Positions 6,901-43,400 of a stretch of 64,000 bases of DNA are shown piece after piece. A model generated the notes under the pieces. That model was not told the DNA's origin, searched no databases, and saw only the letters and a list, made by a program, of their open reading frames with translations. The DNA is from Podarcis liolepis (taxonomy: Eukaryota), in the NCBI GenBank assembly GCA_965112155.1, contig OZ218098.1; one strand, given 5' to 3'. The number at the start of each line of letters is the position of its first letter. Positions within the stretch are counted from its first letter, which is position 1. Both the position numbers and the translations under genes were made by a program.

Positions 6901-9900
6901 TGCAATAACCTCTTATTTTAAAATGCCCACATTTCTAAAAAAAGACTAATATCTTTAAAGCACCTGAGATTCGAGAAAAGGCTGTTTCACAAGAAATAAT
7001 TCCTCCTCCATCGGTCTCAAAAGAATTGGAACCTCCGGCAGCTAAAGGTACACCAGCAATTCAGTGAAAGTGATAATGAATTAGCAAATGTCAAGGCATT
7101 TAAATGTGCCATAATAGCTCATTGTCATAAATTTTGGGGTGTTGTGTGCCAACGTCAATAACTGTTTATTTAGTTTGTCTGTTTCTATGTGTTTCACAAT
7201 TTTTTTAATTTCCTGCCACAAACTAATATCTTTAAAGTGCCTGTGATACGAAAGAAAGCCATTTCGGAAGAACAAGTAACAGTTCAAGTATCTAGGAAAG
7301 AAGCTACACGCTATGAAGGTACATAATCCTTTAATTAGAATGTTTCATCTAAAAGTCTTCTAACTTGTCAATGCTTTATGTTACAGAGCCCAAGCCCAGG
7401 TTGTCATGTATACTAAAGGTGTTTATGGCCATTTGATCGGCCATTCACACTCCATTCACATTACTAATTGGATAGGCTTTAAGTAAATTCATTTTCAAAT
7501 GCAGCAATAGACACACATGGGGGATTGTTTCAAGGTTTAGATATTATTTAGGCTGCCTTTCACATGTCTCAGATGTAGCCCAATAAAAACCATTCTCATA
7601 AAGCATTAAGGGAGAAAAATGAAAACTTGAGTGAAAAAGAAAATAGCATAAGATCCAGTTAATGATAGTTCAGTAGCAATGTAAAAAACTTTTTTCAGAA
7701 CTTAACTGAAAAACTTTTTTCAGAACTTAACTGAAGATTGGAATAGCAAGAAACCAGAAAGGTGGAACACTTAGATTTTAATTAGATTAGACCAACTGGT
7801 TTCAGTGGGACCAAACTTTATAACTAGTGAGGCTAACCATAAAAGCATGACTAGTGCTCAGTTGAGGGGTGAGGCTTAACTTGCCTTGGTAGACATGACC
7901 CATGAGGGCAGAAAAATAATCAGAGCCCAGGTGGGGTAAAAAGGAGTTCCAGCAAAAAATGTTTAGGGACTTATGGAGCGCAGAAGGGGCATATTTCAGA
8001 ACCTTTCGCTCCTCCACCCCCTTTGCTCTTAACAACAGGCACTCTACTTTATATGTGATTGTAGCAAACCTAGATTTAAGCAAATAATTGTGCTGTACTC
8101 CTATCTGGTTTCAGCCTGCGCTCTAATTAGCAGAGCAAAAGGTTTGAATTAGTTAACCTTGAAGAGGGCCTGCTTCTGTGACTAAATGAGAAGTATAAGT
8201 TTATTCCACAATAAATACGGCTGGGCTCTCTGTTTGTTGGTCATAGTCTTTGGTTATGTCTTTTTTGTCCTATGCTTTTTACAAGTATGATTTTGCATGT
8301 CTCAAAGAAAACTAATATCTTTAAGATACAGAAACATTTGAGGAAATGCTTCTAGAAGAAATGGAAGAACGGTATCCTGCCGCCATTCCTAGGAAACGTG
8401 AGGTTGCACCTCCCAAAGGTATATTCTCTCTTCGAGGAAAACGTAAAGCTACCAAAGTCACAAAAGTGACATATTTTCATTATTTCGCTCTTGTTCAGTT
8501 TGATGCTACTGTTTGCATTTTGTGGTTTAAAAATTCTTACAAGGGAATTGATTTTATTTAAAGTGTCTGAGGTGCCCAGAAAAGGAGTGGCGGAAGAGAA
8601 GATATCCATTGCAAAGCATGAAAAAAGAGAATTAGTTTCTGTACATGAAAAAGCAGAACTTACTGAAGTATCTCAGATAACGCAGCCTCAAGCACCAGAA
8701 AGGAAGACAGCTGCTCGTAGACCCACAAAACCAGAATCTATTGCTGTATCAAAGCCAGCAGAGCCTGAGCTGCCAAAACAGAAGCCCCTTGTTGCCAAAC
8801 CCAGAAAACCGCAACCCGTTGTAGAGCCTGAAGTGCAAGAAGAGGAGATAGATATTGCTGAACCTGAGGAACCCATACCTGTTGCAGTTTATGAGGTAGT
8901 CGAACCTCGTGTGCCAGAAAAGAAGAAAGTCGTTGCTAAACCTAAAAAACCAGAGCCTGTTGTGATGCTTAAAACAGTAGAGTCAAAACAGGAGATAGCT
9001 GTTGCCAAACCCAGAAAACCAGAACCTCTTGTGGAGCTTGAAACAGAAGAGCCTGGGGTGCCAGAAAAGAAACTATTCATTGCTAAACCTAAAGAAGCAA
9101 AACCTGGTGTGGTTCCTAAAACAACAGAGCCTCCAGTGCAAGAAGACCAGATGGCTGTCTCCAAACCTAGGAAATCAGAACCTGTTGGGTTTCCTCAAAC
9201 AGTAGAGCCTGAAATGGAAGAAGAGGAGACAGATATTGCTGAACGTGAGGAACCAAAACCTGTTGTAGTTCTTGAGACGGTAGAACCTCATGTATCAAAA
9301 AAGAAGGCAGCTGTTGCTAAACCTAAAAAACCAGAACCTATTATGGTGTCTAAAATAGTGGAGCCTCCAGTACCAAAACAGAAGATAGCTGTCACTGAAC
9401 CCAGAAAACCAGGACCTGTTGTGGAGCCTGAAACAGCAGAGCCTGAAGTGCTAGAGGAGCAGATAGTTGTCTCCAAACCCAGAAAACCAGAATCCATTGT
9501 CATGGCTCAGATGGTACAGCCTGAAGTGGAAGAAGAGGAGATAGATATTGTTGAACTCAAGAAACCAAAACCCACTTCAGTTCTTGAGGCAGTTGAACTT
9601 CATGTGCCAGAAAAGAAAGCAGCTGTTGCTAAACCTAAAAAAACAGAGCCGCTGGTGTCTGAGCCTCCTGCACCAAAACAGAAGATAGCTGTCACCAAAC
9701 CCAGAAAACCACAACCTGCTTTGGTGCCTGACATAGAAGGGCCCGAAGAGGAAGAAAAGAAGGCAACCATTGCTAAACCTAAAAAAACAGAGCCTTACAT
9801 GCCAGAAGACAAGACGGCTGTTGCCAAACCCAGAAAACAGGAATTCATTGTCATGCCTCAGATGGCAGAGCCTGAGCTGGAAGAAGAGACAGATATTGTG

Positions 9901-12900
9901 GAACCTGAGAAACCGAAACCTATTGCTGTTCTTGAGTCAGCAGAACCTCGTGTGCCAGAAATGGAGGTAGCCGCTGCTAAACCTAAAAAACCAGAACTTA
10001 TTGCAGTGCCTAAAACAGTAAAGCTTCCAGCGGCAAAACAGAAGATGGCTGTCACCAAAGCCAGAGAACCAGAAGTTGCCATGGTGCTTGAAACAGCAAA
10101 GCCTGAGGTGGAAGGAGAAAAGAGAGCAAAATCCAGGGAGCCAGAACCTACAGTGGTGCCTGAAACAGTTTGGTGGCAAGAGCCAGAGGAAAAGGCAGCT
10201 GTTTCCAAACCCAGAAAACCAGAGCCTGCTGTTGTGCTTGAAGCAGCGGAGGCTCAAATACCAGAAGAGACTGTGATGGTTGCTAAGCCTAAAAAACAAG
10301 ACCCTTATGCTGTGCCTGCAACAGAGCCTCCACCATTAAAAGGTAGACGTCATTCCCAAAGGGAAAAGACACTCTTGGCTATAGAAATGTTTGTCTTGTT
10401 TGTGGGGGAAAAAATCTTCTTTGTTTCATGTTAGTTTATAAATTTTGTGCTGGCAACTTTTCTTGTCATACGTAAATGTGAATGTTCCAAATTAATGTCA
10501 ATGTTTGGTGTCAAGTCTTTACGGTCTTGCTGTTATTTATCTTTATTGTGGCTTCTTCAGTTCGTACAATTAACACAATCTAATATCTTTATTGAAGTAT
10601 CTGGTTTATCCAAGAAACCTGTTCTAGACAAGTGCTGACAAAAAGCAAAAAAACAGAAGCTCTGCTGGGTAAGAAAGAAAGTAAAAAAAGAACTTATCTC
10701 TTCTTGTTTCCTGATAATCTTGTGTCCCAAAAAGTTCCCATGCTGATTTTTGCAGAAATAGGAATATCATTTGCAGCTGTATTCTTACCTTGATGCATAG
10801 GCATCCTTCCCTTTATAAACAAATATGACACAATACATCATAAAACATGAGGTCAGATGCCAGGATGAAAGGGGAAATGCTAATTATGATAACAATTAAT
10901 AGTAATAAACATACCCAAACCACTGTCAGGAAGGTAACAGCAGTGGAAGTAATCTTACAAAACAGATGTATCAGCAGGTGTTTTGAAATCTTTCAAATGT
11001 TCAGTTGAGTTCAACCATTTCCATCAGCCCATAAAAGATAAGTACTTATATATATGAATGAAGGACCTGTATAGAGGGGAATTTTTATCGCAGTGCCTTC
11101 TTTTCAGTCACTTGAATGATTTGTTCAGATTTGCCACCTGGACAGCTAATATTCAGCAACAATTGACGTTGTGGTGCTTGTTCATATGTCAACTATAGAT
11201 GTTTTGAGAAAAGGTCTATGTCTATACAATGTAAAGGGGAGCCTCTTGCTTTCAATTGAATACCCACCCGTGTGATTTTAATGTCAATATTGTCCATGTC
11301 ATTCCATGTCCATGTGTCATGTTCTGTCTGTTGGGACTAAATCTGTTTCACTTCTTCATGCCGTGTTATAAACCATTTTCAGTTCTTCAAAGTAAAATGT
11401 ACTAATATCTTTAAAGTTCCCGAGATGCCCAAGAAGGCTGTGCCAGAAGAGAAAATACCTGTTGCAGTGCCTAAAAAACCAGCGCCTCCACCTGCTAAAG
11501 GTATATACCTCAGTCTTGGTGCCATTCATTCTCACCAAAAGAAAAAAGAAATGGGTTATGGGTTCACTTCCCCCCACCCCCATTTATAATTCTGCATTCT
11601 TTTCTTCTTCCTCGTCTTCTAAAAACCGACTTCATTTCTTAATTGGAAACGTTCAAATAGGTTTTGGTTACAATTCAGAGAGTTATGGATACAAAACCTC
11701 ATCGATTTCAATGGAACTTGCTTGCCCCCTGAACTGTGACTGCTTAATATTGACCACTAACCTTCCTGATATTCCTCTAAAGGCGCCTCTTTATTCCTGA
11801 CACTTTTGCCTACATTTTAACAAACTGAAACGTAACAGAAAATGATGCTATTTCTTTTCAAGTGCCTGAGGTACCCACAAAAGTTGTCCCGGAAAAGAAG
11901 GTGCCAGCTGCTGTTCCAGAAGCACCTCCAGCTAAAGGTAACATCCCCTTTGACAGAAAACAGCAGTGGGTTGGGGCTGGTCCAGGAGGATAGGCATTGG
12001 CCTGGTTTGCATGACATGGTAAGAAGAAACCTCAGCTGCAGCTCATGGTTAGTGAGTAGACCACTTAACAGTGAGTCTGGGCTCCAGCAATATACTAAAC
12101 CAGGCCTCCTCAACCTCGGCCCTCCATATGTTTTGAGACTACAATTCCCATCATCCCTGACCACTGGTCCTGCTAGCTAGGGATCATGGGAGTTGTAGGC
12201 CAAAACATCTGGAGGGCTGAGGTTGAGGAAGCCTGCACTAAACGAAACTTTGATTGAGCTCAGCGCAGTGTATTACTAAAAAAGACTATGGAGGAGCAAA
12301 ATGGTTGCAAGCTGGTTGAAAATGGTTGAAAGCCTGCACTTTTGCACAATTCTGGTAAGCCATAGCTTAGCTTACTGTGTCACATGAACCAGGCCAGTGT
12401 ATATCTTATTATTTTAAATTCATATTACTTTTTTATACTACACATTATCATCTCTAAATGCCATGTGCTCTTCACTTTAGGAGACCATATCAAGTGTGGT
12501 ATTTGGATACCAAAGGTGGCAGAAATGTTCTCCTTTAAGCTAATATTATTTATTTGTTTGTTTGCTTGTTTGTAAATTCACAGTCAGCCGTTACTATCAA
12601 AATTTCTAGAACAGGTCCCATAAAAATAAGAAAACAATTTTAAAAGATCAAACAGCAGATAAGACTAGCATCACTAAGACAGTCTCCTCAACAGTGAACA
12701 GGCAGGTGAAATAAATAGGGTGGCATCAAAAGATCTTATGAGAATATATAATTATGGTTTCCGTCAAATTTCAAATTATAAATTATACATTAAAGGATAT
12801 AAATTGAATACTATTATTTAAATATCCCCATCTACTATAACTTTATTTCATATTATTATATTTCCTTTTTAAATTATTATTGAAACTAATTTATTGTAGT

Positions 12901-15900: not shown

Positions 15901-18900
15901 TATATAAAATTTCTCGTGAAAGTAAATAAATAAATCGGACATTAAAACTGACCAATGTCTTTTAAAGTGCCAGAAGTTCCCAAGAAAGTCATTCCAGAAA
16001 AGAAACCGCCTGAACCAGAAGCTCCACCAGCTAAAGGTACATGTCAACATTATTGTGGTCACATGGAAGCATCTTCTTATTCTGATGTGTTTGTTGTACT
16101 TTGTGTTCCTTGTTTTCTCTTATGATGTACAAGATGTCTTCTTCATGTGAGATATTCAGAAGGCTTTCAGCCTATTTATAAAATAATTTCTTTATTAGCT
16201 TACTCTTAGCTCCTGGTGAGTGATCTGCCATCCAGGCTGTTAACCTATTTACTTTCAGCAACCCTGGCAGCAGAAATTTACTGGAAAATAAACTGTGTAG
16301 TTCATATACTTAAGGAAAATTCAAATGAGAATGTACCAGGAAGCATCTCCATCCCTTACTAATGCTATGCTCATCTTCCATTGATTATGATAATTTAACA
16401 GAAGGACAAAGAAATAGGATGGCAATTAAACTGCCACACTTTATAGAGATCTGCATAACTTCTCAGGAAAGGGAAGGAGGACTCATTTAACAAAACAAAA
16501 ACAAACTAGGGATATAGCATGAAAATAAAGAAAATATACTGTCTGCATTTGTGGAGAGGAGGAGAAAATTGTATTTGAATATCGTTTTTGTCACTGTTTT
16601 CAAGTTTTGTGTTCATTGTTTTCAAATCTTTTATATCTTTGACAATCACACATTCAAAACTAATATCTTTTAAGTGCCTGAAGTGCCCAAGAAAATTGTC
16701 CCAGAAGAAAAAGTACCAAAGAAACCAGAACCTCCCCCTGCTAAAGGTATTTGTCAATTCTGAAATAATCATAGTGAAAATATTTGGGTACAATGCTGCT
16801 TATATAGAATCAGTGGTAAAACTCCCATGGGTTTTAAATGGAGCAGGATTCCAGCTTTTGCCTTGCTCCCATGCCTTCAGTTCCTTCATTTATTACTTCC
16901 CATTGAAATGTGGCATTTATTAGGCACAATCCGGGTGAAGCTAAGCACTTTTAAGGCTAAAGTTCTATGCACACATCTGAGAGAATGTACACCATGGGAC
17001 TTCCTTCTGACTAAACATGAGCAGGAAGTTTATGCATGTCCCATTAATTTCAGTGGAAGGATTAAGCACAAAGTGCTTAACTTTAACTGGATTATGCCCA
17101 AAGTAACATGTAATCCAAATGCATATCAGATACATTTTTATAGTCTTTTTGATCATATTGAGTAAGAAAAGCCAGAAGTTTATGAGCTGCCAGTGACATT
17201 TAGGTTGCATTGAGCTTGGTGGGTCACAAAGAAGTTGGTGGTACGCCTAGGCAATGAATGTCGATAATAAATCAAAATACAAAATATCAACAGGCCAAAG
17301 AAGACATGTAAACTTCCTGTTGTGTTGTGTCATCTTCCTATAAGGTGGCAAAATTCTTGTCAAAGGCATAAACTTATTTATTATCCATTCAAGTCATTGG
17401 ATGTTAATGTGAACATCCTATTACTATGTACTTGGATTTTACCATCATTTTGAGTATATCATTGGGTTTGGAGAATTAAGGAGAACACCTTAGGAATATA
17501 TGATGGCCCAGAAGAAAATATTTATCAAATATTTATCAGTTCATATATAGTCATCAGTAATAGAGTAAATATAACCAAGGCTAAAACCACTCCAATCTTT
17601 TTACAGATTTACTGTTTATGAGGAGTGGGGGTGTAATGCTATCTTGTCACAGTGGGATTGTAAATGCATTTTCTTTGTTTGTGTTTGATACCCTTGTTTT
17701 CCATCTGCATTGTCTGAATTAGTGATTGTTTTAATGAAAGAGAAAAGCGAGAGGCTGAGATAGATCTTCAATGTTATGTAGTAGATAATGTTGTATATCG
17801 TCATGTTTTGTGTCTCACGGTTTCTTGATCTCATAATCTTGCACATTGCATTTCGAATTAATAATAGTAAAACAAACAAATATCTTTAAAGTGCCAGAGG
17901 TGCCCAAGAAACCTGTGCCTGAAGAGAAGGTCCCTACTCTCAAAAAGAAAGAACCACCAACACCTAAAGGTATATGTTATATCTGATCAAATCTTGAAGC
18001 GAAAAACATCATTTTCTTATACTCTTGATCATTGATCATCTTTTGGATATCCTTATGAGTCTATGTCATGCATTCTTTTCAGTAGCTTTCTGTGGCTAGC
18101 ATCTCCATCCTTATAGTTCTACTGCTGGTACAAGTGGAGTTGTACTTCATGGTAGTTTGTTGTTACAAGATTCTGGGGACAAAAGCATGCATGCCCCCTC
18201 ACCTTACATCTTGAGCTTTGACATTTTCCCATCTTTTACATTTCATTGTGCTTTCAAAATTCAATAGTAAGCATTAACTAATATCTTTAAAGTGCCGGAA
18301 GTGCCCAAGAAGGCTGTCGTCGAAGAGAAAGAACCAACTCCTGTGCTTAAAAAGCCTGTACTTAAGGAACCAGAACCTCCTCCTGTTAAAGGTACATTTC
18401 AGCATTAATGCAGTTATAAAGAATGTGGTTTTGATGCAGGTGTTTAAAGCAGATGTCTGGGAGATTCTTGTTCTGTCTGTGCTCCGTTGCTTAAAATTTC
18501 TTTTGTAAACAATACTGTTGGTTCAGTCCAGTGTGTGAGAGAAAAAGTGCTTAGCTGTGCTGAACTTCATCACGACTGCTTTCTCTGTGTCCTAGTATGC
18601 AAACACAATTGCTGATTTTGTTATAATTGTGCATTATGTTTCAATCTTCTTCTTCATATTAGCTACATATCTCTTGCCCCTTCTTAAAAGTAAAACTAAT
18701 CTCTTTTAAGCACCCAAAGTACTTCGGAAAACTGTGCCAGTTTAAAAAGTAACTCTTGTTTTACCTAAAGAACCAGAACGCTTTGCTGTGTCTGAAGAAC
18801 CAGAGACCATTAGTGTTTATGAAGAAGAAAAAGTCACTGTTGAGTATGAAGAAGAAGTCGTCACTGTTGTTGCCGAAGAACGTCAACCTGCTATTGTGCC

Positions 18901-21900
18901 TAAGAAACCCAAGCCTACCATTGTCCCTAAGAAACCAGAAGCTGCAGCCGTGCCGAAACCACCAAAGGCTGTACTTAAGAAACCAGAACGCCCACCTGCT
19001 AAAGAGACCTTGGAATATGAAGAAGAACGAGAGGTGCAAACGATTGTTGGGTACAGAGAGCGAATACATGTTTCTGTCCACCAGGACATAGAGGCTATAG
19101 TTGCACTTGAAGAACCCGAGAGTGCTTCAGCTTTTGAGATCACAGAGCCTGAGCAATACTTTATTGAGGGATCAGAGGAGATTATTTCACTTGAAGGACC
19201 CGAAGCTGTCCCAGAAGAACCAGAAGCCGTTGCTGCTCCGGAAGAAATGAAACCTGCTATTGTGCCAAAAAAGCCGAAGCCTACTGCTGTAGCTAAAAAG
19301 CCAGAACCTGCAGCTGCACCCAAGAAACCAGAACCTATTGCAGTGCCTAAAAAGCCGAAACTTGCTCCTGTACCTAAAAAACCGGAGCCTCAGAAGCCAG
19401 AACCCTTGTTTAAAAAACCAGAACGCCCACCAGCTACAGAGATCGAAGAGCACGAAGAGGAACGAGAGGTGCAGACTTTTATTGGAAAGAGAGAGCGACA
19501 ACATGTTTCCGTCCACCTAGACATAGAGGCCATAACTCCTTTTGAGGAACCTGAGAGCGCTGCAGCTTATGAGATGGAAGAAGAAGAACAATACGTCATT
19601 GAGGGGTCCGAGGACATCGTTTCCCTTACAGGACCTGAGCCTGTTGCTGTCCCTGAGGAACCCCAAGTCGTTGCTGCTCCTGAGGAACCTAAACCTGCTC
19701 TTGTGCCCAAGAAACCCAAGCCTGTTGCTGCGCCTAAGAAACCTGAACCCGAAGCTGCTCCCAAGAAACTAGAACACGTCGTGGTGACGAAAAAGCCGAA
19801 ACCTGCCGCTGTGCCTAAAAAACCAGAGCTTGCGGCACCGCCCAAGAAGCCCGAACCCTTGTTCAAAAAACCAGAACGCCCACCAGCTAAAGAGATTGAA
19901 GAGCACGAAGAGGAACGAGAGGTGCAGACTTTTATTGGAAAGAGAGAGCGGCAACATGTTTCCGTCCACCAAGACATAGAGGCCATAACTGCTTTTGGGG
20001 AACCTGAGAGCGCTGCAGCTTATGAGTTGGAAGAGGCAGAACAATACGTCATTGAGGGGTCTGAGGACATTCTTGCACTTGAAGCACCTAGAGCTGCTCC
20101 TGAGGAACCAGAAGTCATTGCTGCTCCTGGCGAGCCTACGGAAGTACCTAAGAAACCAGCAAAAGGTATATGGCATAATCTTTTCCCGTACAAAGAGTAT
20201 GTCTTCCTTAAAGCAGAATGTTGACAAGCGTTGCTTTGCCAACTTTCTGCTGAGCAATTCGAAAAACTGCTCTTGGAAACAAAGTTGTTGTGTGTATACA
20301 TTGGTGTGTGGGTGTGTGAAAGAGAGAAAGGTTCTTTCTGATTCTGCAAAGCAATTTGCTTAGGCCTGCAAGAATTTGAAATTTCCATTATTAATTGACA
20401 TGAAAGTAAAAAAAAACTTAAATGTATGAATGGAAACAGATTCAGGAAGAATTATTCATTTGAAGCTGGATGAAGGTGATGTCTGATGTGCCTGTGGGTT
20501 GATGGGTCTATTTTTCCCCTGTCTTTTAACAAACCAACTAATATCTTTAAAGTGCCTGAGGTACCCAAGAAAGCTGTTCCAGAAAAGAAAGTACCAGTTC
20601 CTGTGGCTAAAAAAGTCAAACCGCCACCAGCTAAAGGTATATGTCCACACCTAAAGAAGAAAATTTCTTTGTTCTTCTTAAAATACTCTCTTCTTCTGTA
20701 CTGTCTCTCCTATAGTTTTTGCTTGACTGAAATAACCTAGTGTTCATTTTATAATACGAACTCTGTATGTATAATACAAAGTCTGTATGTCTCTAGATAC
20801 GATGTACGTCTATGTATCTGTCTGTAGCATTAATCTTGCTTTTGATACGTCCTTAATTCTTCGTTCCTCTTCTTAACATCTTGGTACCTCTTACTTCAAT
20901 ATTTCTCAAAGTAAAAATAGAAATATTATCTTTAAAGTGCCTGAAGAGCCCAAGAAAGTTGTTCCCGAAAAGAAAAAACCAGCTGCTGCACTTAAAAAAC
21001 CAGAAGCTCCTCCCGCAAAAGGTACTTTTATCATTCACAGAGAAAATCATTATCTTGCTTGCTGCGTTTGGTTCAGCTGTTGGATTTGTAAATCGTACTA
21101 ATGTGTATAAATGACAGGCTGAGCCTAACTTGGGAGGGGATGGGGGTGAGGGAGTGTTTGTGTCCAAACATAATAGGTAACTTCAGCAGCTCCGCTTTTG
21201 CTTTTAATGCCTTGTTTGTTTTACCTACATGAAAGTAAAACTAATTAACATTTCTTGAAGTCCCTGAAGTCCCTAAGAAACCTGTGCCAGAAGAAGAGGC
21301 CCCTCTTGCTGTTCCTAAAGAGCCGGAACCTCTGCCTGCAGAAGGTAGCTCTCCCTATTAATCACGACGTCATTCTTATCCAGACTGCTATGTCCGCTTT
21401 GTTTGGTCTTACGTTTTATGTGGTCCTGTATGTATATGTAAGGTGGGGTGGTGGTGGTAGAGGACTGTCTGTTCTTTATGATGTCCTTCTGTTTAAAGTC
21501 TGCCATTCTACCTTATTACAGATTTCAGGCCACAGTCTTCAATGACTGCGAGCAATTCTAACCGTGGAAAACCCACGCTTAGAATCTTGATTTGCCATTA
21601 AAGACTGAAGCTAATACTTCAATTATCTCATTTTGCACAAATTGGCTTTGGCCTTTTTGTCATCTTTCTGCTGTGTGGTGTTGCACTCCTTTTGGTTGCA
21701 ATTATAGTACTGGCCTCATTTATAGGGGCCTTAGGGAGAAATCAGAAGCAGGGCTTTTTCTTTCCTTTTTTGTCCAGCAGCAGCAAGTCTACCTGGGNNN
21801 NNNNNNNNNNNNNNNNNNNNNNNNNNNNNNNNNNNNNNNNNNNNNNNNNNNNNNNNNNNNNNNNNNNNNNNNNNNNNNNNNNNNNNNNNNNNNNNNNNNN

Positions 21901-34400: not shown

Positions 34401-37400
34401 AACAACACTTCTTACCTGACCCATATCTTGTAGAGGCCGACCCATATTTCGTTGTGAAATTGCAAGATTATACCGCTGTTGAGAAAGATGATATCATTCT
34501 GGAGTGTGAACTTAGCAAAGATGTGCCAGTGAAATGGTATAAAGATGGTGAGGAGCTTGTAGCTTCCAAGAGAATCTCCATCAAGACTGATGGCAAGCGC
34601 CGCATATTAAAAATTAAAAAAGCAACCGATGCTGATAAGGGAAATTATGAATGTAACTGTGGAACTGACAAGACAAATTCTGAAGTTAAGATTGAGGGTA
34701 AGTGATTGTCCTCCTTCAGTAGAACCTCTTCGAAACATTGTACACCTTACTGGTCAAGGCAGGAAATCTGAGATATATACATATTTGCTTTCAGCTCGTA
34801 TGATAAAAATAGAGCGTCCTCTTTATGGAGTGGAAGTATTTGTTGGCGAAACAGCACGATTTGAGGTTGAAATCTCTGAGCCTGATGTTCATGCCATTTG
34901 GAAGTTAAAGGGAGAAACTTTAACAGCTTCACCTGTAAGTCTGTTTCAAAAAAACAAGCAAACCACAGCACAAGTGTTGTTGTTTTTAAGAGAAACACAC
35001 AAAAACAATTCTTAGAAAGTTTTAGAGAACACATGAGTGATTAGGACAAATCTGTTATTTTTTTCCCCACCCTCATAAAAAATAAAAATCAGGATTGTGA
35101 AATGATTGAAGATGGCAAGAAACATGTCTTGATTCTTTACAACTGCAAACTGGATATGACAGGAGAAGTGTCCTTCCAAGCTGCAAATGCGAAAAGCGCT
35201 GCAAATCTGAAAGTGAAAGGTAGGCTTCAGAAGGCATCAACTCCCAACCCATCTTGCAGGGTTTTCTTAATGCCCAGCAACATCAATAAAATCCATTGCT
35301 GGAGCAGTTTATAAAAAAACAAACAAACACGTGTCTAACACTCTTAATAACCCGGTTTGATTTCAGAGCTGCCTCTCATCTTCATAACTCCTCTCAGTGA
35401 CATTAAAGTCTTTGAGAAGGATCCTGCGAAGTTTGAATGTGAGGTATCAAGGGAACCGAAGACTTTCCGTTGGTTGAAAGGAACCCAAGAGCTTGAAGGG
35501 GATGAGAAATTTGAAATTATAACAGAAGGCACAAAGCACGCACTTGCCATTAAGAGTGTGGCTTTTGAGGATGAGGCTAAATATATGTTTGAGGCTGAAG
35601 ACAAACGGACAAGTGCAAAGCTGATCATTGAAGGTTTGTTTGTAGCTCTGGTTCTCCTGACGGTGTGTTTGGCTTTCATATTTATGTCATTTGATTCGTC
35701 ACAGTTTAACTTTAACGAGATGCTTTTGTGGTTTAGGCATTCGCCTTCAATTCATTACCCCTCTCAAGGATGTAACTGCAAAGGAGCGCGAGACTGCAGA
35801 ATTTACTGTTGAGCTTTCCCATGACAATATCCCTGTTATCTGGTATAAGAATGACCAACGGCTCCATACCACCAAGGTTGTTTCAATGAAGGACGATGGC
35901 AAATTCCATACGCTCACATTCAAAGATCTCAATATTGATGACACCTCTCAGATAAAAGTGGAAGCTATGGGCAAATCGTGTGAAGCTAAACTTACTGTCC
36001 TTGGTATGTGTGGTCTGAGTTTGATTTACATTATGGCTCTTCTTTGATAGAACATCAACTAGAAGCATAACCGTGTGCTTAGAAGCTTTATTCACATGGG
36101 CTTCCCCTTCCTCAGAGCAGTTCTTTAAATCTTATGGGGAGATCCCATTCCAGATTCTTATGGTACAGCTAGATTTGCCTCCATATTAGGGCTTTCTTGG
36201 CAGCAGACCTCATACTTTTGAACATGCTTTCAAGAAGAGGTTCATATGAGCTCCTCTTTTGGGGGCCATCTGTCCTCTTTCAGAAAGCTTCTGACAATTG
36301 ACTGCCACTAGTTGATGTGTTCTGTTATACTGCCATGCTACCCTATTAGCAATCCTTTTGTTATTTATTTGTCCTTTGGTTCATTGTTTCATTGTGGTTG
36401 TTGCTTTGAATTTGCACCCTTTTCTAAAACATTGCATCCATTGGCTGCCTGTTTCTTTCCGGTAACACAATACAAAGTACTAGTCCTGACCTATAAAGGC
36501 CTAAGTGGTCTGGGACCAGCATATCTAAAAGAACATCCTTTTCACTTACAAGTCTAATCATCAGTTAAGAATATTTCGGTGGCAAAGCACATGCCTTGCA
36601 CACAAAAACTCCCAGGTTAAATCCCTTCCTTCTCCAGGTAGTATTGGAAAAGACTCCTGTCTGAAACCCTGCATAGCTACAACCAACCACTGTAGACAGT
36701 AGTTAGATGAGCCTATGGTCTGACTGAGTGAAAGGCAGTTTTCTATGTTTTTATCTGTTGGGACCTTTTTCCAAACTCCCATGCTTGTTATTGTCATTCA
36801 GGCTTTACTTTGAAATGGTCCTATTTTCCTGTGTTTTTTTTATTATCAGTAATAGCTTTCAGTGTCTTTATATGGCTCTGCTGTAAGTTTTTGTGCTGCC
36901 ATTTTATTTTTGTTTTAGTCTTGTTTTTGGGAAAACGTCATCCCTCCTACAAATTTTTGGATGTCGTATTGTCTAAGTTTGTTTTGAATTTGTTGCAAGC
37001 CGCCTTGTGGATCCAAATCTCTGGAAGGCGGGGTATAAATCTCTTTTAAATAACCAAAATAATAAATAAATAAGAAACCACTTTGTGGTGTACCACAGAA
37101 ACACGTTTCTTTCGGGTCCGTATAAAAGAAACAAAATGAAAAGCAGAATCAGCTACTTTTACCTAATAACAATAATTTGCTCTATTAAAGTTGCTTAAAA
37201 ACTTGCTTTTAGAAAACTTTATCCTACATAGAAAATCTAAAAAAAAGCACTCTTACCTGAAAGGAGAACTGTCTTGCATAAGTTGGTACAATTTTGAATG
37301 TATGAGTAATCTTAGAATGTCACATATTCACCTTGACTTGCAGAGGGGGACCCTTATTTTACTGGGAAGCTTCAAGATTACACGGCTGTGGAGAAAGATG

Positions 37401-40400
37401 AAGTGATTTTGCAATGTGAAATTAGCAAAGCAAATGCTCCCGTAAAATGGTTTAAAGACGGACAAGAACTAACTCCGTCTAAGAATGTTATTATCAAGGC
37501 CGATGGCAAAAAGAGAATACTCATCCTCAAAAAAGCCTTGAAGAAAGACATTGGTCAATATACCTGTGATTGCGGCACTGATCAGACTTCTGCTAAGCTG
37601 AACATTGAAGGCAAGTTCACCCTTACTGGTGTATTATTATATTCTATTTTAAACCGCCCTGAGGATCATTCATTCGAAAGACAAGATACTGTATAAATCT
37701 TCTTAATAAACACATAAATAAAATCTTCCTGATCCTTCTGTCGTAGAACCCTGCTCATCAACATTGTCATGAAAGCTAATAATATTGGTGCGTGTTTTTT
37801 TCCCCTTCACAGATCGTGATATTAAGATTGTACGTCCCTTATATAGCGTGGAAATATTTGAGACAGAGACTGCACGTTTTGATACAGAAATCTCTGAGGA
37901 AGATATTCATGCTAACTGGAAACTGAAAGGGGAGCCCTTGACACAGACACCTGTAAGCAATGCTTTGAAATATTTCCCCACTTCTAAATGAGACTTAGAT
38001 TGCCTAAAATATGCAGAGGGAAGAACATAAACTTTTGGAAGATCTGAGAAAGTACTGTAGGGGTGCTGAGAAAATAATTTCTATATCAACACAATTTAAA
38101 TGGCTTGAATTGTAAATCGTGCAGTTAAGCAAAATATATAGAATGTAGTCATCCATGTTTCATATTTACACAACAGAAAATATATAATTCAAGGGGAGCA
38201 GTTTTAACGTTAGAAATCTGAAGATTGCTTTTGTAATGAAAAGCAATTGTAAGTAATATGTAAATAATATTTGATAAAAATATGTTGGTTGCAATTGTTA
38301 AAGCAATGTACCAGGTGCCTCTGGAAGTTAATAACTGCAATCAATTGGTTCATTGTAGCCATATATGGGGAGGGTTATTAATGTTCCCATGTAAACAATT
38401 CAGAAAATCAATGTGCATGTTTAGCACATTAACATCTCATTGATCGGGACAATGTGTGGTTCAAGGCCTGAGGTAAAAGTTTTGCAAAAGTTCAGTAGGT
38501 CGTAGCCATTGGTTGTGTGAGCAGATGGAAGGGTTGCGCACAGTGCCCTGACCAACTTTAACTCTTTAGCAGCTGGCTGCAACACGGCCAACGCTGTTCA
38601 GGAGGACCTCTGACCCTCCAAAGAGGCTTTTCATGAGGCTGAGTGGGCATCAGTGGGGAGGGGAAAGATTGGTTGCACAAGCTCCCTTCCTCTCACACAG
38701 TCATTAGATACAGAACAATGGGGTCCAAGTACAGTGGTACCTCGGGTTACACACACTTCAGGTTACATATGCTACAGGTTACAGACTCTGCTAACCCAGA
38801 AATATTACCTCGGGTTAAGAACTTTGCTTCAGGATGAGAACAGAAATCGTGCAGCGGTGGCGCAGCGGCAGTGGGAGGCCCCATTAGCTAAAGTGGTGCT
38901 TCAGGTTAAGAACAGTTTCAGGTTAAGAACAGACCTCCAGAATGAATTAAGTTCTTAACCCGAAGTACCACTGTATTGTCAATGTACGTGCCAGAGAATG
39001 TGTTGTTCTGGTATTTGTACTCTGAGGCAGGATGTTGAGAATCATGGTTGCAAAACAGCTGCAGCCAGTACACTGTTTTGTCCCCAAAGGGGAATGAAAG
39101 GTTGCTACCATTCTGAATATCCAAATACCAGAAATATGGACCTGATAAAAGGAAGTGAAAGCTATTAAAAACAAGCATTGTACAAACCTTTGCATTTGTT
39201 TGCTCTTGGAAGGACTGTGAAATTAAGGAGGAAGGCAAAAGGCACTGTCTTACCCTCTACAACGTGCGCTTGGACCAGGCCGGTAGCGTAGACTTCCAAG
39301 CAGCCAATGCCAAATCAACTGCCAATCTTCGAGTAAAACGTAAGTGTCTTGCAAGTGTATCTGTAAGATCACTTGTCTTTTACATCAGTAACTGAGCTAA
39401 ACTGAAACAAGTTGAGAGTCAGAGTGGGGCATGTGATCTGTTGTTAATGGAACAGTAAATGAGAAGGAGAGACAGTCGGGTGAGCTGAGGTTAAGGAGTA
39501 GTTATTTGATATAGTTGTGTGCCTTATTCTTTCTTTATAAAAGCTTTTTATAAGTTAATTCTGATACTTTTAATTTAGTTTGTTTGTTTTTAGATCGTGG
39601 GATAGGTATTATATAAAGATTTTCAATTAGTTAATAAGAACAGGTTGTTAGACCACTGGAATTGCCCCTCCTTATTCCAGGATGATTGGCAAGGTAGCAT
39701 AATGAGTTGTTACGAAATCTAAAATATTACAAACGGACTCTCTGCTGTGCTTGGCATTTGGGGTATAAGATCTGAGAGATAACACCATGCTGACATTTGT
39801 GGAAAGTGCCAGTAGCTTGATGGACAGGAACACCCTACACAGTTGGTGGCCACTTGTCTCTCTATCCAATTGTAGACCTTGCTATTTTGGAAGGCGCATG
39901 CCTTATCTAGCAAGAGGCATGCAGGGCTTGGCAAAGGAGACAGATGCAACGTAGCTTTCTTGCTGATCTTTTCATTTAAAAGGAACAGGCTCCGCAAATA
40001 GGGAATCTCCAGTGACCAGCCCTCCCCCTGAAAACCCCAAGGGCCCAGATCTAGCCAGGGAATTTAAATAGCCACTGTACATCATACTCCCTCTCTCTTG
40101 GGGAAAGGCACTATGGCCATTAGTAAAAGGTGCAGGTGGCTAATCTGAAGATGTTTTCTTCGTTCCGTCAAGCACGTGTAATTGGCCTGCTGAGGCCTCT
40201 GAAGGATGTAACTGTAACAGCTGGTGAAACGGCAAACTTTGAATGCGAACTCTCCTATGAGGGAATTGTAGTGGACTGGTTCTTGAAAGGACAGAAATTG
40301 GAGCCCAGTGACAAGGTACAGAAGACATTCTTTCTCTTCTCCCCTTCTTCCATGTCAAACCCTATTTCTTTCCCTCTTTCTCTCCTACCCCTCCCTTTTG

Positions 40401-43400
40401 TGAGACTGGCAGTGCAATCCTATACATACTTACCTGGAAGTAAGCCCCACTGAGCTCAATGGGGCTTGCTTCCAAGTAGAGATCCATAGGATTGCACTGT
40501 AAGGCGCTATTCTAAAATATCATTCAGAAAAATCAGTTCCTTCCACATGGTGGAAGATAAAAGTTTCAAAGGGAGAGGTGAAAGGGGTTGGGGAGGTTTT
40601 GTATCAGTGCTAACATAAAGGGATATGTAATATTTTGATATTAGTGGGGAAGTTTATGAATGTTTGCATCTCCTGATTCTTTCTCTGAATGTAGAGCTGG
40701 CATTCAGTTCTGCATATAAGGGGATTAAGGAGATTGAAATTCCATTTCAGGCATTTGAGCAGGCTTCCAGATAACTTTCTCGGTAGATCTGCTCGCAGAG
40801 CATTTCTCACCAGCTATTTTTAACCCTTCATCAAGTGTGCTGTTAGCGCTGAGATGTGAACAGCCTGGAATGCAGTTCATTCAATATTTAAAATGTTTTA
40901 GCAGCAAGCCATATAGTAGTATAAGTAATCACATGAAGAAGTTGCATTCAGTGAAATATTATTTGGTGCATGCTTTTTTAGATCCTCTGTTTAAGTCGTT
41001 AGAGTGTCTGTTAATGATAGGCTTACGCAGAGAATATTTGCAAAGGAAAACAGAAATATGCCTAGTTAGTGCAAGTTTGAAATTACCATAGCCAATTCAG
41101 CCTAATCAAAACATTAAATTTAAACTAGCATAGCGAGATTTAACTAAATGAATAGATTAATACTTACTGTTCCCATGAAAAGTATTTTAATGGTGAAGCA
41201 TTATTAGATGCATCATAAATATTTCAACTTTTATTTAAATAAATATTTCAACTTTTATTTCATATTAATAGTTAGCAAGATTTTATGTTTTGCTTCTGAT
41301 TAACCCATCTACATCAGTTTAAATGGGCCTATGATAGCACAAACAATGGTGTTTAGGGCACTCCTACCCCAGTCCAGTAAGGGACTATAATCCATGCAGA
41401 ACCAGGTCTCTCCTGACTTCTTCCCAGCTGGACAGGGGAGCTATGATGAAAAGCTTCTTATACAAGTACTGTAGTTCCCCGTTTTGATTGATTTGGATTA
41501 TATCAACCCTTTGAAGAAGTTTACAGTTCCAGCAATCAGCTGGTGGATTCAGTCTGCCGACTCCCACAAAACTCTAGAGGCCTTTGGGGCTTGGCGGCTG
41601 ATGCAGTACGAAGAACTGAAATTGCAACAAGAAATCAGAGAAGCCCCAATGCATGCCCAGAGGCGCATGGGTGTATAACTGGGAGTCTTTGTTTACCAGC
41701 CTATTTAGACAGACATGTGCTAACACAAATGTTTGATATAAGGTTGCAACATGTTTCCTTACCAAATCTATTCTCCTGAACGTTGCTTCTTCTTTTTTTA
41801 AGATCGTGCCCCGTGCTGAAGGCAGAGTTCACACCCTTGTTCTAAGAGATGTGAAACTAACAGATGCTGGAGAAGTCAAACTGACTGCAAAGGATTTCAG
41901 AACTCAAGCAAATCTTTTTGTAAAAGGTAGGCTTCCTAAAGTAACAATTTATTCCATTAGCGGTATGCTAGAGACTACTGATCTGTGTTAGGCAAAGTGC
42001 ATGATTGGGCTGATCCTTTTCTGCAGTACTTTTTACACATAAAATGCTGAAAAGATTTCTGGCCATAACTCAGTCTTTTAAAAAGATCAGAATGATAGCT
42101 AGCTTTTAAATCTCTTGGGAGGAAAAAATGATGCATGTAGCACCAACATGATTTGTGGGGGTTTTTCCCTCCCTGTCCTCAGAACCACCTGTTGAGTTTA
42201 CTAAGCCTCTTGAGGACCAGACTGTAGAGGAGGAAGCTACTGCAGTTCTGGAGTGTGAAGTATCCAGAGAAAACGCACCAGTGAAATGGTTCAAGAATGG
42301 CCAAGAAATCCACAAGACAAAGAAATATGATATAATTGCTGATGGCAGAGTCAGAAAACTTATCATTCACGGCTGCACACTGGACGATGCTAAAACGTAC
42401 ACATGTGATTCTAAAGATTTCAAGACATCTTGTTTCTTGAACGTTGAACGTAAGTTTTTCTCATAATTTCCTTATAAAGACATAGATACTTGTTTGCATG
42501 ATTCCAAAGGTAGGCATGTTGCAGATATATGGGTGGGTCAAACTGATGGTGCTGTAAAACAAGCAGACCTTTGACTTAAGTGGGTTGGGCTTTTTCTTTC
42601 ATCCACAAAAGTGGGAACCTCTACTTTATCATAACTCTATTAGAATAAATTATTATAACTAAGGCCATTGCTACGAATTGAGATTCACGGATAAGAAAAA
42701 AAGAGATTGTTTTCAAACTGGAAATTTTTTCTTCCTTATAGCACCTCATGTTGAGTTCACAAAGCCCCTTACGGATATTGAAGTTAAAGAAAAAGAAGTT
42801 GCTCGGTTTGAATGTGAAATTTCCCGACCAAATGTTCAGGTCTGTAATGTTTGTGTCTCTTCATATTTGCCCTTGTCAATAGCTTTTGCACAGAATCTCA
42901 CAGCATTTATTGCAGCCACCGGGAAACATTTTCTATTTTTCTAGTCACTAGGGCAGCCCAAAGCATTTAGAAGGTGGAAATTGTGTCTACTAATAGCTCA
43001 AACCAAAAGATGATCTAGGTTGTCTGCATCATTCAGTCCCACCTTCACTAGCTCCTTACTATAGATCTCCAGTTGCCAACGTGATGCCTGAGCAGCTTCA
43101 TCTTTTTCACCTCCAAAGATTTCCTTAGGTGCCCTCAAAGCCTCTGAGCACCCTTCCCACCCATCTGCTTTTCAAGGATCAGATTGGCACCTGAGCAGCT
43201 TTCTTAGGGCTGCCACGACATGGAAATATGGATCTGAGGCATGGGTCCTTAAGGATTCTCATAGCCTGATTGTTCCCTCATGCCCACCCCCAGGGAGCCC
43301 AACCCTCCATACCATCCTGCCATTGGCCAATTCAGCAGGCTGACGTGGAACAGGATTTCAAGTTGTGAGTGTGAGCCGAAGCTCTCGCTCCGGCTGGGAT

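Follow-up and report, generated by a model that had tools for sequence, protein, structure and literature searches.

A titin intron of Podarcis liolepis as the probable reptile counterpart of the Cronos site

The window, a 64,000-nt stretch from the lizard Podarcis liolepis, carries on its + strand titin exons that begin in PEVK, cover the Ig domains of the distal I-band and reach the first Fn3 domains, and it is single-copy in the 1.57-Gb genome. One of its introns, at 39340..40172 (GT..AG, 833 nt), is with high probability the reptile orthologue of the titin Cronos site, with a promoter and a first-exon extension inside it, and the likely source of a shorter titin mRNA starting near 39935. 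The orthology of the flanking exons, an in-frame ATG, the open frame behind it, and a conserved block and leader are the observed parts of this reading. According to the accessible text of PMC4720518, zebrafish Cronos arises in the e115-e116 intron, with transcription starting 110 nt before the exon and Met 7 codons before it; the mouse and human introns are e222-e223 and e239-e240, with starts 257 and 256 nt before the exon, respectively, and Met at -12 codons. All features described below lie on the + strand unless stated otherwise.

The intron was identified by (i) zebrafish and mouse guide and primer sequences with matches in each of the two flanking exons as well as within the intron (39937-39960), each with 0 of 100 shuffles as good, and (ii) a domain count from I27. 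The upstream exon, 39213..39339, encodes the second half of I95 and is the orthologue of zebrafish e115, mouse e222 and human e239, as supported by spliced joints and by the zebrafish e115 guide sequence, which is found at 39213-39232 with 1 mismatch. The downstream exon, 40173..40315, follows the acceptor AG at 40171-40172, encodes the first half of I96 and corresponds to zebrafish e116, mouse e223 and human e240; the mouse e222/e223 junction primer falls at 40170-40189 with 3 mismatches. The joint 39339>40173 (GT..AG) was seen in spliced contigs of seven of the eight runs examined. Spliced joints also define the next exon, 41803..41927, which encodes the second half of I96 and carries the reading frame on. 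The zebrafish e116 guide has no match at three or fewer mismatches (four by eye), which counts against the assignment.

For the domain count, the exon at 34797-34931 is I27 (PDB 1TIT, E 5.7e-19), and bird titin aligned to the window makes the exon at 40173 the fifth domain after it; no close structure for I96 was found in the PDB. The 40173 exon is distinct from the named bird, frog, chimaera and teleost entries, and P0002 and P0003 are the closest of 17 compared. We take I27 to be equivalent to I91, which makes this exon I96, in agreement with the exon count by which the initial annotation had placed the site between I95 and I96. That annotation had allowed for a Cronos intron at a different exon pair or an ATG that is not conserved; the exon pair proved to be the same, and the ATG is conserved across jawed vertebrates.

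Other parts of the window were noted in passing. A high-copy repeat in the preceding intron (38726-38979), with very high depth in four runs (X7, X9, X10 and X13), resembles a short DNA transposon, and a short repeat at 40409-40503, also high-copy and located downstream of the first I96 exon in the following intron, is probably a SINE fragment. Amid small PEVK exons, two very long open frames with PEVK-like internal repeats, at 8470-10431 (~650 codons) and 18746-20221 (~490 codons), are possibly giant PEVK exons expanded in the lineage.

The proposed start codon, ATG 40151, reads in frame into I96 and is preceded by in-frame stops (TAG and TAA at 40121-40126), just as first described. It lies at -7 codons, the zebrafish position, with A at -3 and T at +4, and its frame is free of stops up to the exon. 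The start codon and its 7-codon leader (40151..40172) occupy the 22 nt before the exon and overlap the polypyrimidine tract and the acceptor. A Met between -5 and -13 is present in 104 of 115 homologues, with peaks at -7 and -12 (Met at -7 in 53, at -12 in 35 and at -6 in 15), a tally that covers this one titin acceptor only and overstates independence, since gene prediction opens its models at start codons and renders GTG as Met, and related sequences have their positions in common. The two peaks are the two published Cronos start positions (PMC4720518). Some of these Met are internal residues (7 at -7, 9 at -6 and 2 at -12); the sixteen at -6 and -7 thus represent true ATG codons rather than relabelled GTG. 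The named chimaera entry, P0094, begins at -7 and runs on into the next exon. Eleven homologues without Met at -5 to -13 speak against the Cronos reading: two are spliced full-length, two begin inside the exon, and seven have Met further upstream.

By similarity of the matches, Met occurs at -7 in fish-, frog- and reptile-like sequences, at -6 or -7 in bird-like ones and at -12 in mammal-like ones; P0006 carries Met at both -12 and -7 and is a possible intermediate. At the mammalian Cronos start position (-12 codons, from the available text of PMC4720518), the lizard has GTG (40136..40138). The mouse Cronos qPCR primer reads, by eye, as part of the P0034 leader. The sequence CTAAT at 40140..40144, 29 nt before the acceptor, resembles the branch-point consensus and presumably serves as a branch point. 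The Ser, Phe and Pro content of the leader, and some of its conservation, are explained by its overlap with CTAAT and the pyrimidine tract; these two splice signals by themselves constrain the leader, a further objection to the Cronos reading.

Both the leader and the promoter are homologous to bird-like sequences. The translation of the proximal promoter region, 39787..39936, aligns to P0129 with a score of 124, against a maximum of 42 in 1000 shuffles, which we read as DNA conservation of promoter and leader in a bird-like genome and not as protein. A 51-nt block (39883..39933) is common to the lizard and teleost Cronos introns: local alignment with L001, one of two fish-like loci from a metagenome scan, scored 48, which none of 1000 shuffles reached (maximum 32), and the next best among 316 window tiles was 31. 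This block, judged from its conservation to be the likely promoter core, holds an AT run, a 14-nt identical core and a TTGGCA end, and stops 3 nt before the homologue of the mouse primer. The ATG of L001 is matched by the zebrafish Cronos primer with 2 mismatches and is also 22 nt upstream of the exon, like lizard 40151. The second locus, L002, has 92 nt before its ATG and was left out of the leader comparison; it is probably the other teleost paralogue and likewise has an in-frame ATG before the same exon (L002:93-257), as have several similar homologue matches. Scans of prokaryote and viral contigs returned three short matches, all irrelevant, and a search of representative proteins gave no usable further sauropsid leader among 20 proteins.

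The AT run of the block (GCTATTTTGG, 39881..39890) is MADS-box-like, with one mismatch to CArG and two to MEF2, and may be bound by such a factor; its TATTTT is common to the lizard and L001. The 14-nt core identical in lizard and fish (39897..39910) consists of CATGCC followed by a GATA site (39903-39908, minus strand) and sits ~30 nt before the predicted start. At the human Cronos promoter, ATAC and GATA4 ChIP signal is reported in the accessible part of bioRxiv 2025.10.07.680441. The mouse start-proximal primer finds its homologue at 39937..39960 (3 mismatches in 24; 0 of 100 shuffles). The primer 5' end is 236 nt away from the lizard exon, compared with 254 nt for bird-like leaders. Both distances are close to that of the mammalian start, 256-257 nt (PMC4720518, available text); on this basis we infer that the lizard start is near 39935, which puts GATA at about -30.

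The motifs listed in the initial annotation are all in place: CAGTTG at 39840, GCTATTTTGG at 39881, CTTATCT at 39902, CAGATG at 39941, a C-rich box at 40020-40029 and TTTAAATAG at 40063-40071. Motif numbers were compared with 1000 dinucleotide shuffles of 39750-40172. There are seven E-boxes where the shuffles average 2.4 (0.6% of them reach this number; 12 patterns were tried) and two GATA sites against 0.9 (24%). The ten-base MEF2 consensus has no exact match and none at one mismatch in this region, and 10 matches at two mismatches against 5.1 in shuffles (3.6%), including those at 39882 and 40062. The TATA consensus has no exact match there and four at one mismatch against 1.7 (11%), including 40063. 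The value of 3.8% obtained for the C-box is meaningless, as the pattern was copied from the sequence itself. Taken singly, the motifs are mostly at chance level, and the excess over chance lies in conservation.

Some of the roles first assigned to these motifs were not supported. GCTATTTTGG does not match the MEF2 consensus even with one mismatch allowed, and the lack of a MEF2 consensus also weighs against the Cronos reading. The C-box and TTTAAATAG lie ~85-130 nt downstream of the start predicted from mammals (40063 is ~128 nt after it), which argues against the C-box as a promoter part and against TTTAAATAG as a TATA/MEF2 element; the latter, moreover, has neither an exact TATA nor the MEF2 consensus. 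Being downstream of 39937, the segment with the C-rich box and the AT-rich TTTAAATAG (40020..40071) is probably 5' leader and not promoter.

In the mechanism that we propose, cardiac or muscle factors would open the site, with a GATA factor at ~-30, a MADS-box factor at ~-50 and bHLH proteins at the E-boxes. Capped RNA would begin at ~39935, and its ~235-nt leader would form a 5' extension of the I96 exon and be spliced like full-length titin. Scanning ribosomes would pass ATG 39944, some would be diverted by the strong upstream ATG at 40113, and the rest would initiate at 40151, because the mammalian -12 start is GTG in the lizard. For full-length titin, the last 35 nt would at the same time supply the branch point, the polypyrimidine tract and the acceptor. 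The predicted product is a titin that lacks its Z-disc anchor and the greater part of its I-band spring; in humans, Cronos is 2.2 MDa (PMC11033294, accessible part). Transcription of Cronos in the lizard is inferred.

RNA contigs provide a weak hint of such transcription. Sixteen runs were guessed to be RNA and eight of them were examined, the contigs being those of related organisms; X17-X22, of uncertain kind, were left out. Four of the eight runs (X1, X2, X3 and X4) have contigs that fall within the 500 nt at the 3' end of the intron; these four had ranked highest in shared words, and they derive from two studies. The X1 contig (39868-40202, depth 2.7) keeps both the upstream ATG and the main ATG and extends 30 letters into the exon, one below the overlap bar, while the X3 and X2 contigs cover 39827-39993 and 39673-39877, respectively. 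The X4 contig starts at 40125, contains the ATG within 48 letters of leader, shows a joint to the next exon and lacks an upstream junction; it is the leader-bearing spliced contig in one of eight runs and also retains part of the following intron. Positions 40582-41721 are without cover in X1-X4. Zero cover of 39448-40075 in X7, X9, X10 and X13 (titin depth 3.9-9.9) says nothing about absence. Control introns are covered in X13 (intron end) and X10. Since X4 retains a later intron and X13 covers a control intron, unspliced precursor can explain the contigs, and contigs cannot reveal a transcription start.

Two ATGs, 39944 and 40113, lie between 39937 and the main ATG. The latter opens an out-of-frame upstream ORF (uORF) of 11 codons (40113..40148), whose length, strong start context (A at -3, G at +4) and end 2 nt before ATG 40151 (TGA at 40146-40148) are as first described. 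It is possible, though doubtful, that this uORF gates Cronos translation, as first proposed, with the 2-nt gap blocking re-initiation and the output produced by leaky scanning; such gating is compatible with the Cronos reading. Its start context is strong, but among 2000 shuffles an upstream ATG in strong context arises by chance in 31% for a length of 100 nt and in 44% for 214 nt. The ATG is kept in X1, the sole contig covering it, from a close relative. If one DNA is to encode three bird-like leaders and, in a different frame, P0129, a single one of 13 registers fits, with 5-6 mismatches versus at least 13. In this register, a Kozak-consensus ATG is forced in birds at the place aligned to 40113, and the upstream ATG thus seems to be shared with birds, although this bird ATG is deduced from two reading frames across different species, which lessens its weight for gating. 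By the same computation, the uORF of the P0021 type would have to end after 5 codons; the abutting geometry is therefore not shared, a further point against gating; TGA 40146, directly behind the branch-point-like motif, may be incidental. Gating is also disfavored by fish L001, which has no ATG at the site aligned to 40113, and by the main TTN 5' UTR, where uORF loss raised the reporter but not endogenous titin (PMC13586513, accessible text). A different upstream ATG in fish, which opens 5 codons and lies 104 nt before the exon, does not align and was therefore rejected as a homologue of the uORF. No Cronos uORF was found in the literature searched, which lay largely outside subscription journals.

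A second short uORF (39944..39979), absent from the initial annotation, has 11 codons in the titin frame and is then stopped. Its ATG is 7 nt after the primer 5' end, and at ~7-9 nt from the predicted cap it is probably skipped. In the bird-like P0027 and P0121, 2 of 128 matches only, the homologue of ATG 39944 opens an unbroken 82-codon frame into titin; the exon of P0121 is 47/47 identical to the named starling titin. This frame is a possible longer Cronos N-terminus, whereas its lizard counterpart stops after 11 codons.

These elements can be combined into a wider conjecture, speculative and rather unlikely as a whole: the Cronos promoter would be a 51-nt MADS-like/CATGCC/GATA core retained in fish and lizards alike, its GATA site taking the TATA position, reptiles and birds would add a Kozak-perfect uORF as a throttle on Cronos translation, and some birds would read an 82-codon N-terminal extension that opens at a cap-near ATG. 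If true, the core and throttle would name the bases to edit for a Cronos-only switch-off, as well as a translational dial.

A start further downstream, at ~40090-40110, with TTTAAATAG as the TATA box and a short zebrafish-like leader, could coexist with the upstream start, but we consider it improbable. It is consistent with the zebrafish start 110 nt before the exon (PMC4720518, available text), with the one-mismatch TATA match at 40063 and with the X4 contig beginning at 40125; however, the mouse start primer and the fish-conserved block are situated upstream of it by another 130-180 nt, X1 spans 39868-40202 in one piece, four one-mismatch TATA matches are near chance (11%), and a contig end does not reveal a start. 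It is very improbable that the site is silent in the reptile, with I96 splice signals and an intronic enhancer of full-length titin as its conserved parts and the ATG as a relic: CTAAT and the pyrimidine tract do overlap the leader and intron-end contigs do occur at other introns, yet conservation extends well past the splice signals, over the entire leader and into 150 nt of promoter, Met is found at both published positions across clades, and deletion of the intron-1 enhancer leaves Cronos unaffected in human cardiomyocytes (PMC11827849, accessible part).

The Cronos reading places the lizard beside zebrafish, mouse and human, in which Cronos has been described (PMC4720518 and PMC12854356, accessible parts). 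No report of reptile Cronos was found in the literature searched, outside which most subscription papers fall; a reptile copy is expected, being what descent predicts, and fills a gap rather than surprises. Cronos is invoked to account for worse muscle and heart disease from titin truncations beyond the Cronos intron. The short block conserved in fish marks the likely promoter core, which may allow Cronos alone to be knocked out and non-coding variants to be examined in a targeted way; this core and the sauropsid upstream ATG are the parts that merit a bench test.

Comparison with known systems revealed likenesses and differences. The uORFs of the main TTN 5' UTR (PMC13586513) are likewise short upstream frames ahead of a titin start codon; however, they belong to another promoter, and the word Cronos is absent from the accessible text of that paper. 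Zebrafish ttna (ttn.2) Cronos uses the same intron and an ATG 7 codons, or 22 nt, before the exon, whereas its transcription starts 110 nt before the exon, compared with a predicted ~236 nt in the lizard (PMC4720518, available text). Its function, including support of sarcomere assembly in skeletal muscle (PMC4720518 and PMC12854356, accessible parts), has been shown in zebrafish, whereas the lizard site is known here from sequence. The teleost-like contig L001, which is not zebrafish, has the 51-nt block in common with the lizard and differs in having no aligned upstream ATG. Mouse and human TTN Cronos share with the lizard the same intron, the start-proximal primer (21/24) and a similar leader length (PMC4720518, available text). 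Mammals start at -12, where the lizard carries GTG; the lizard ATG is at -7, and the lizard leader is ~20 nt shorter. The leader shows a start codon that shifts between -7 and -12 codons among clades.
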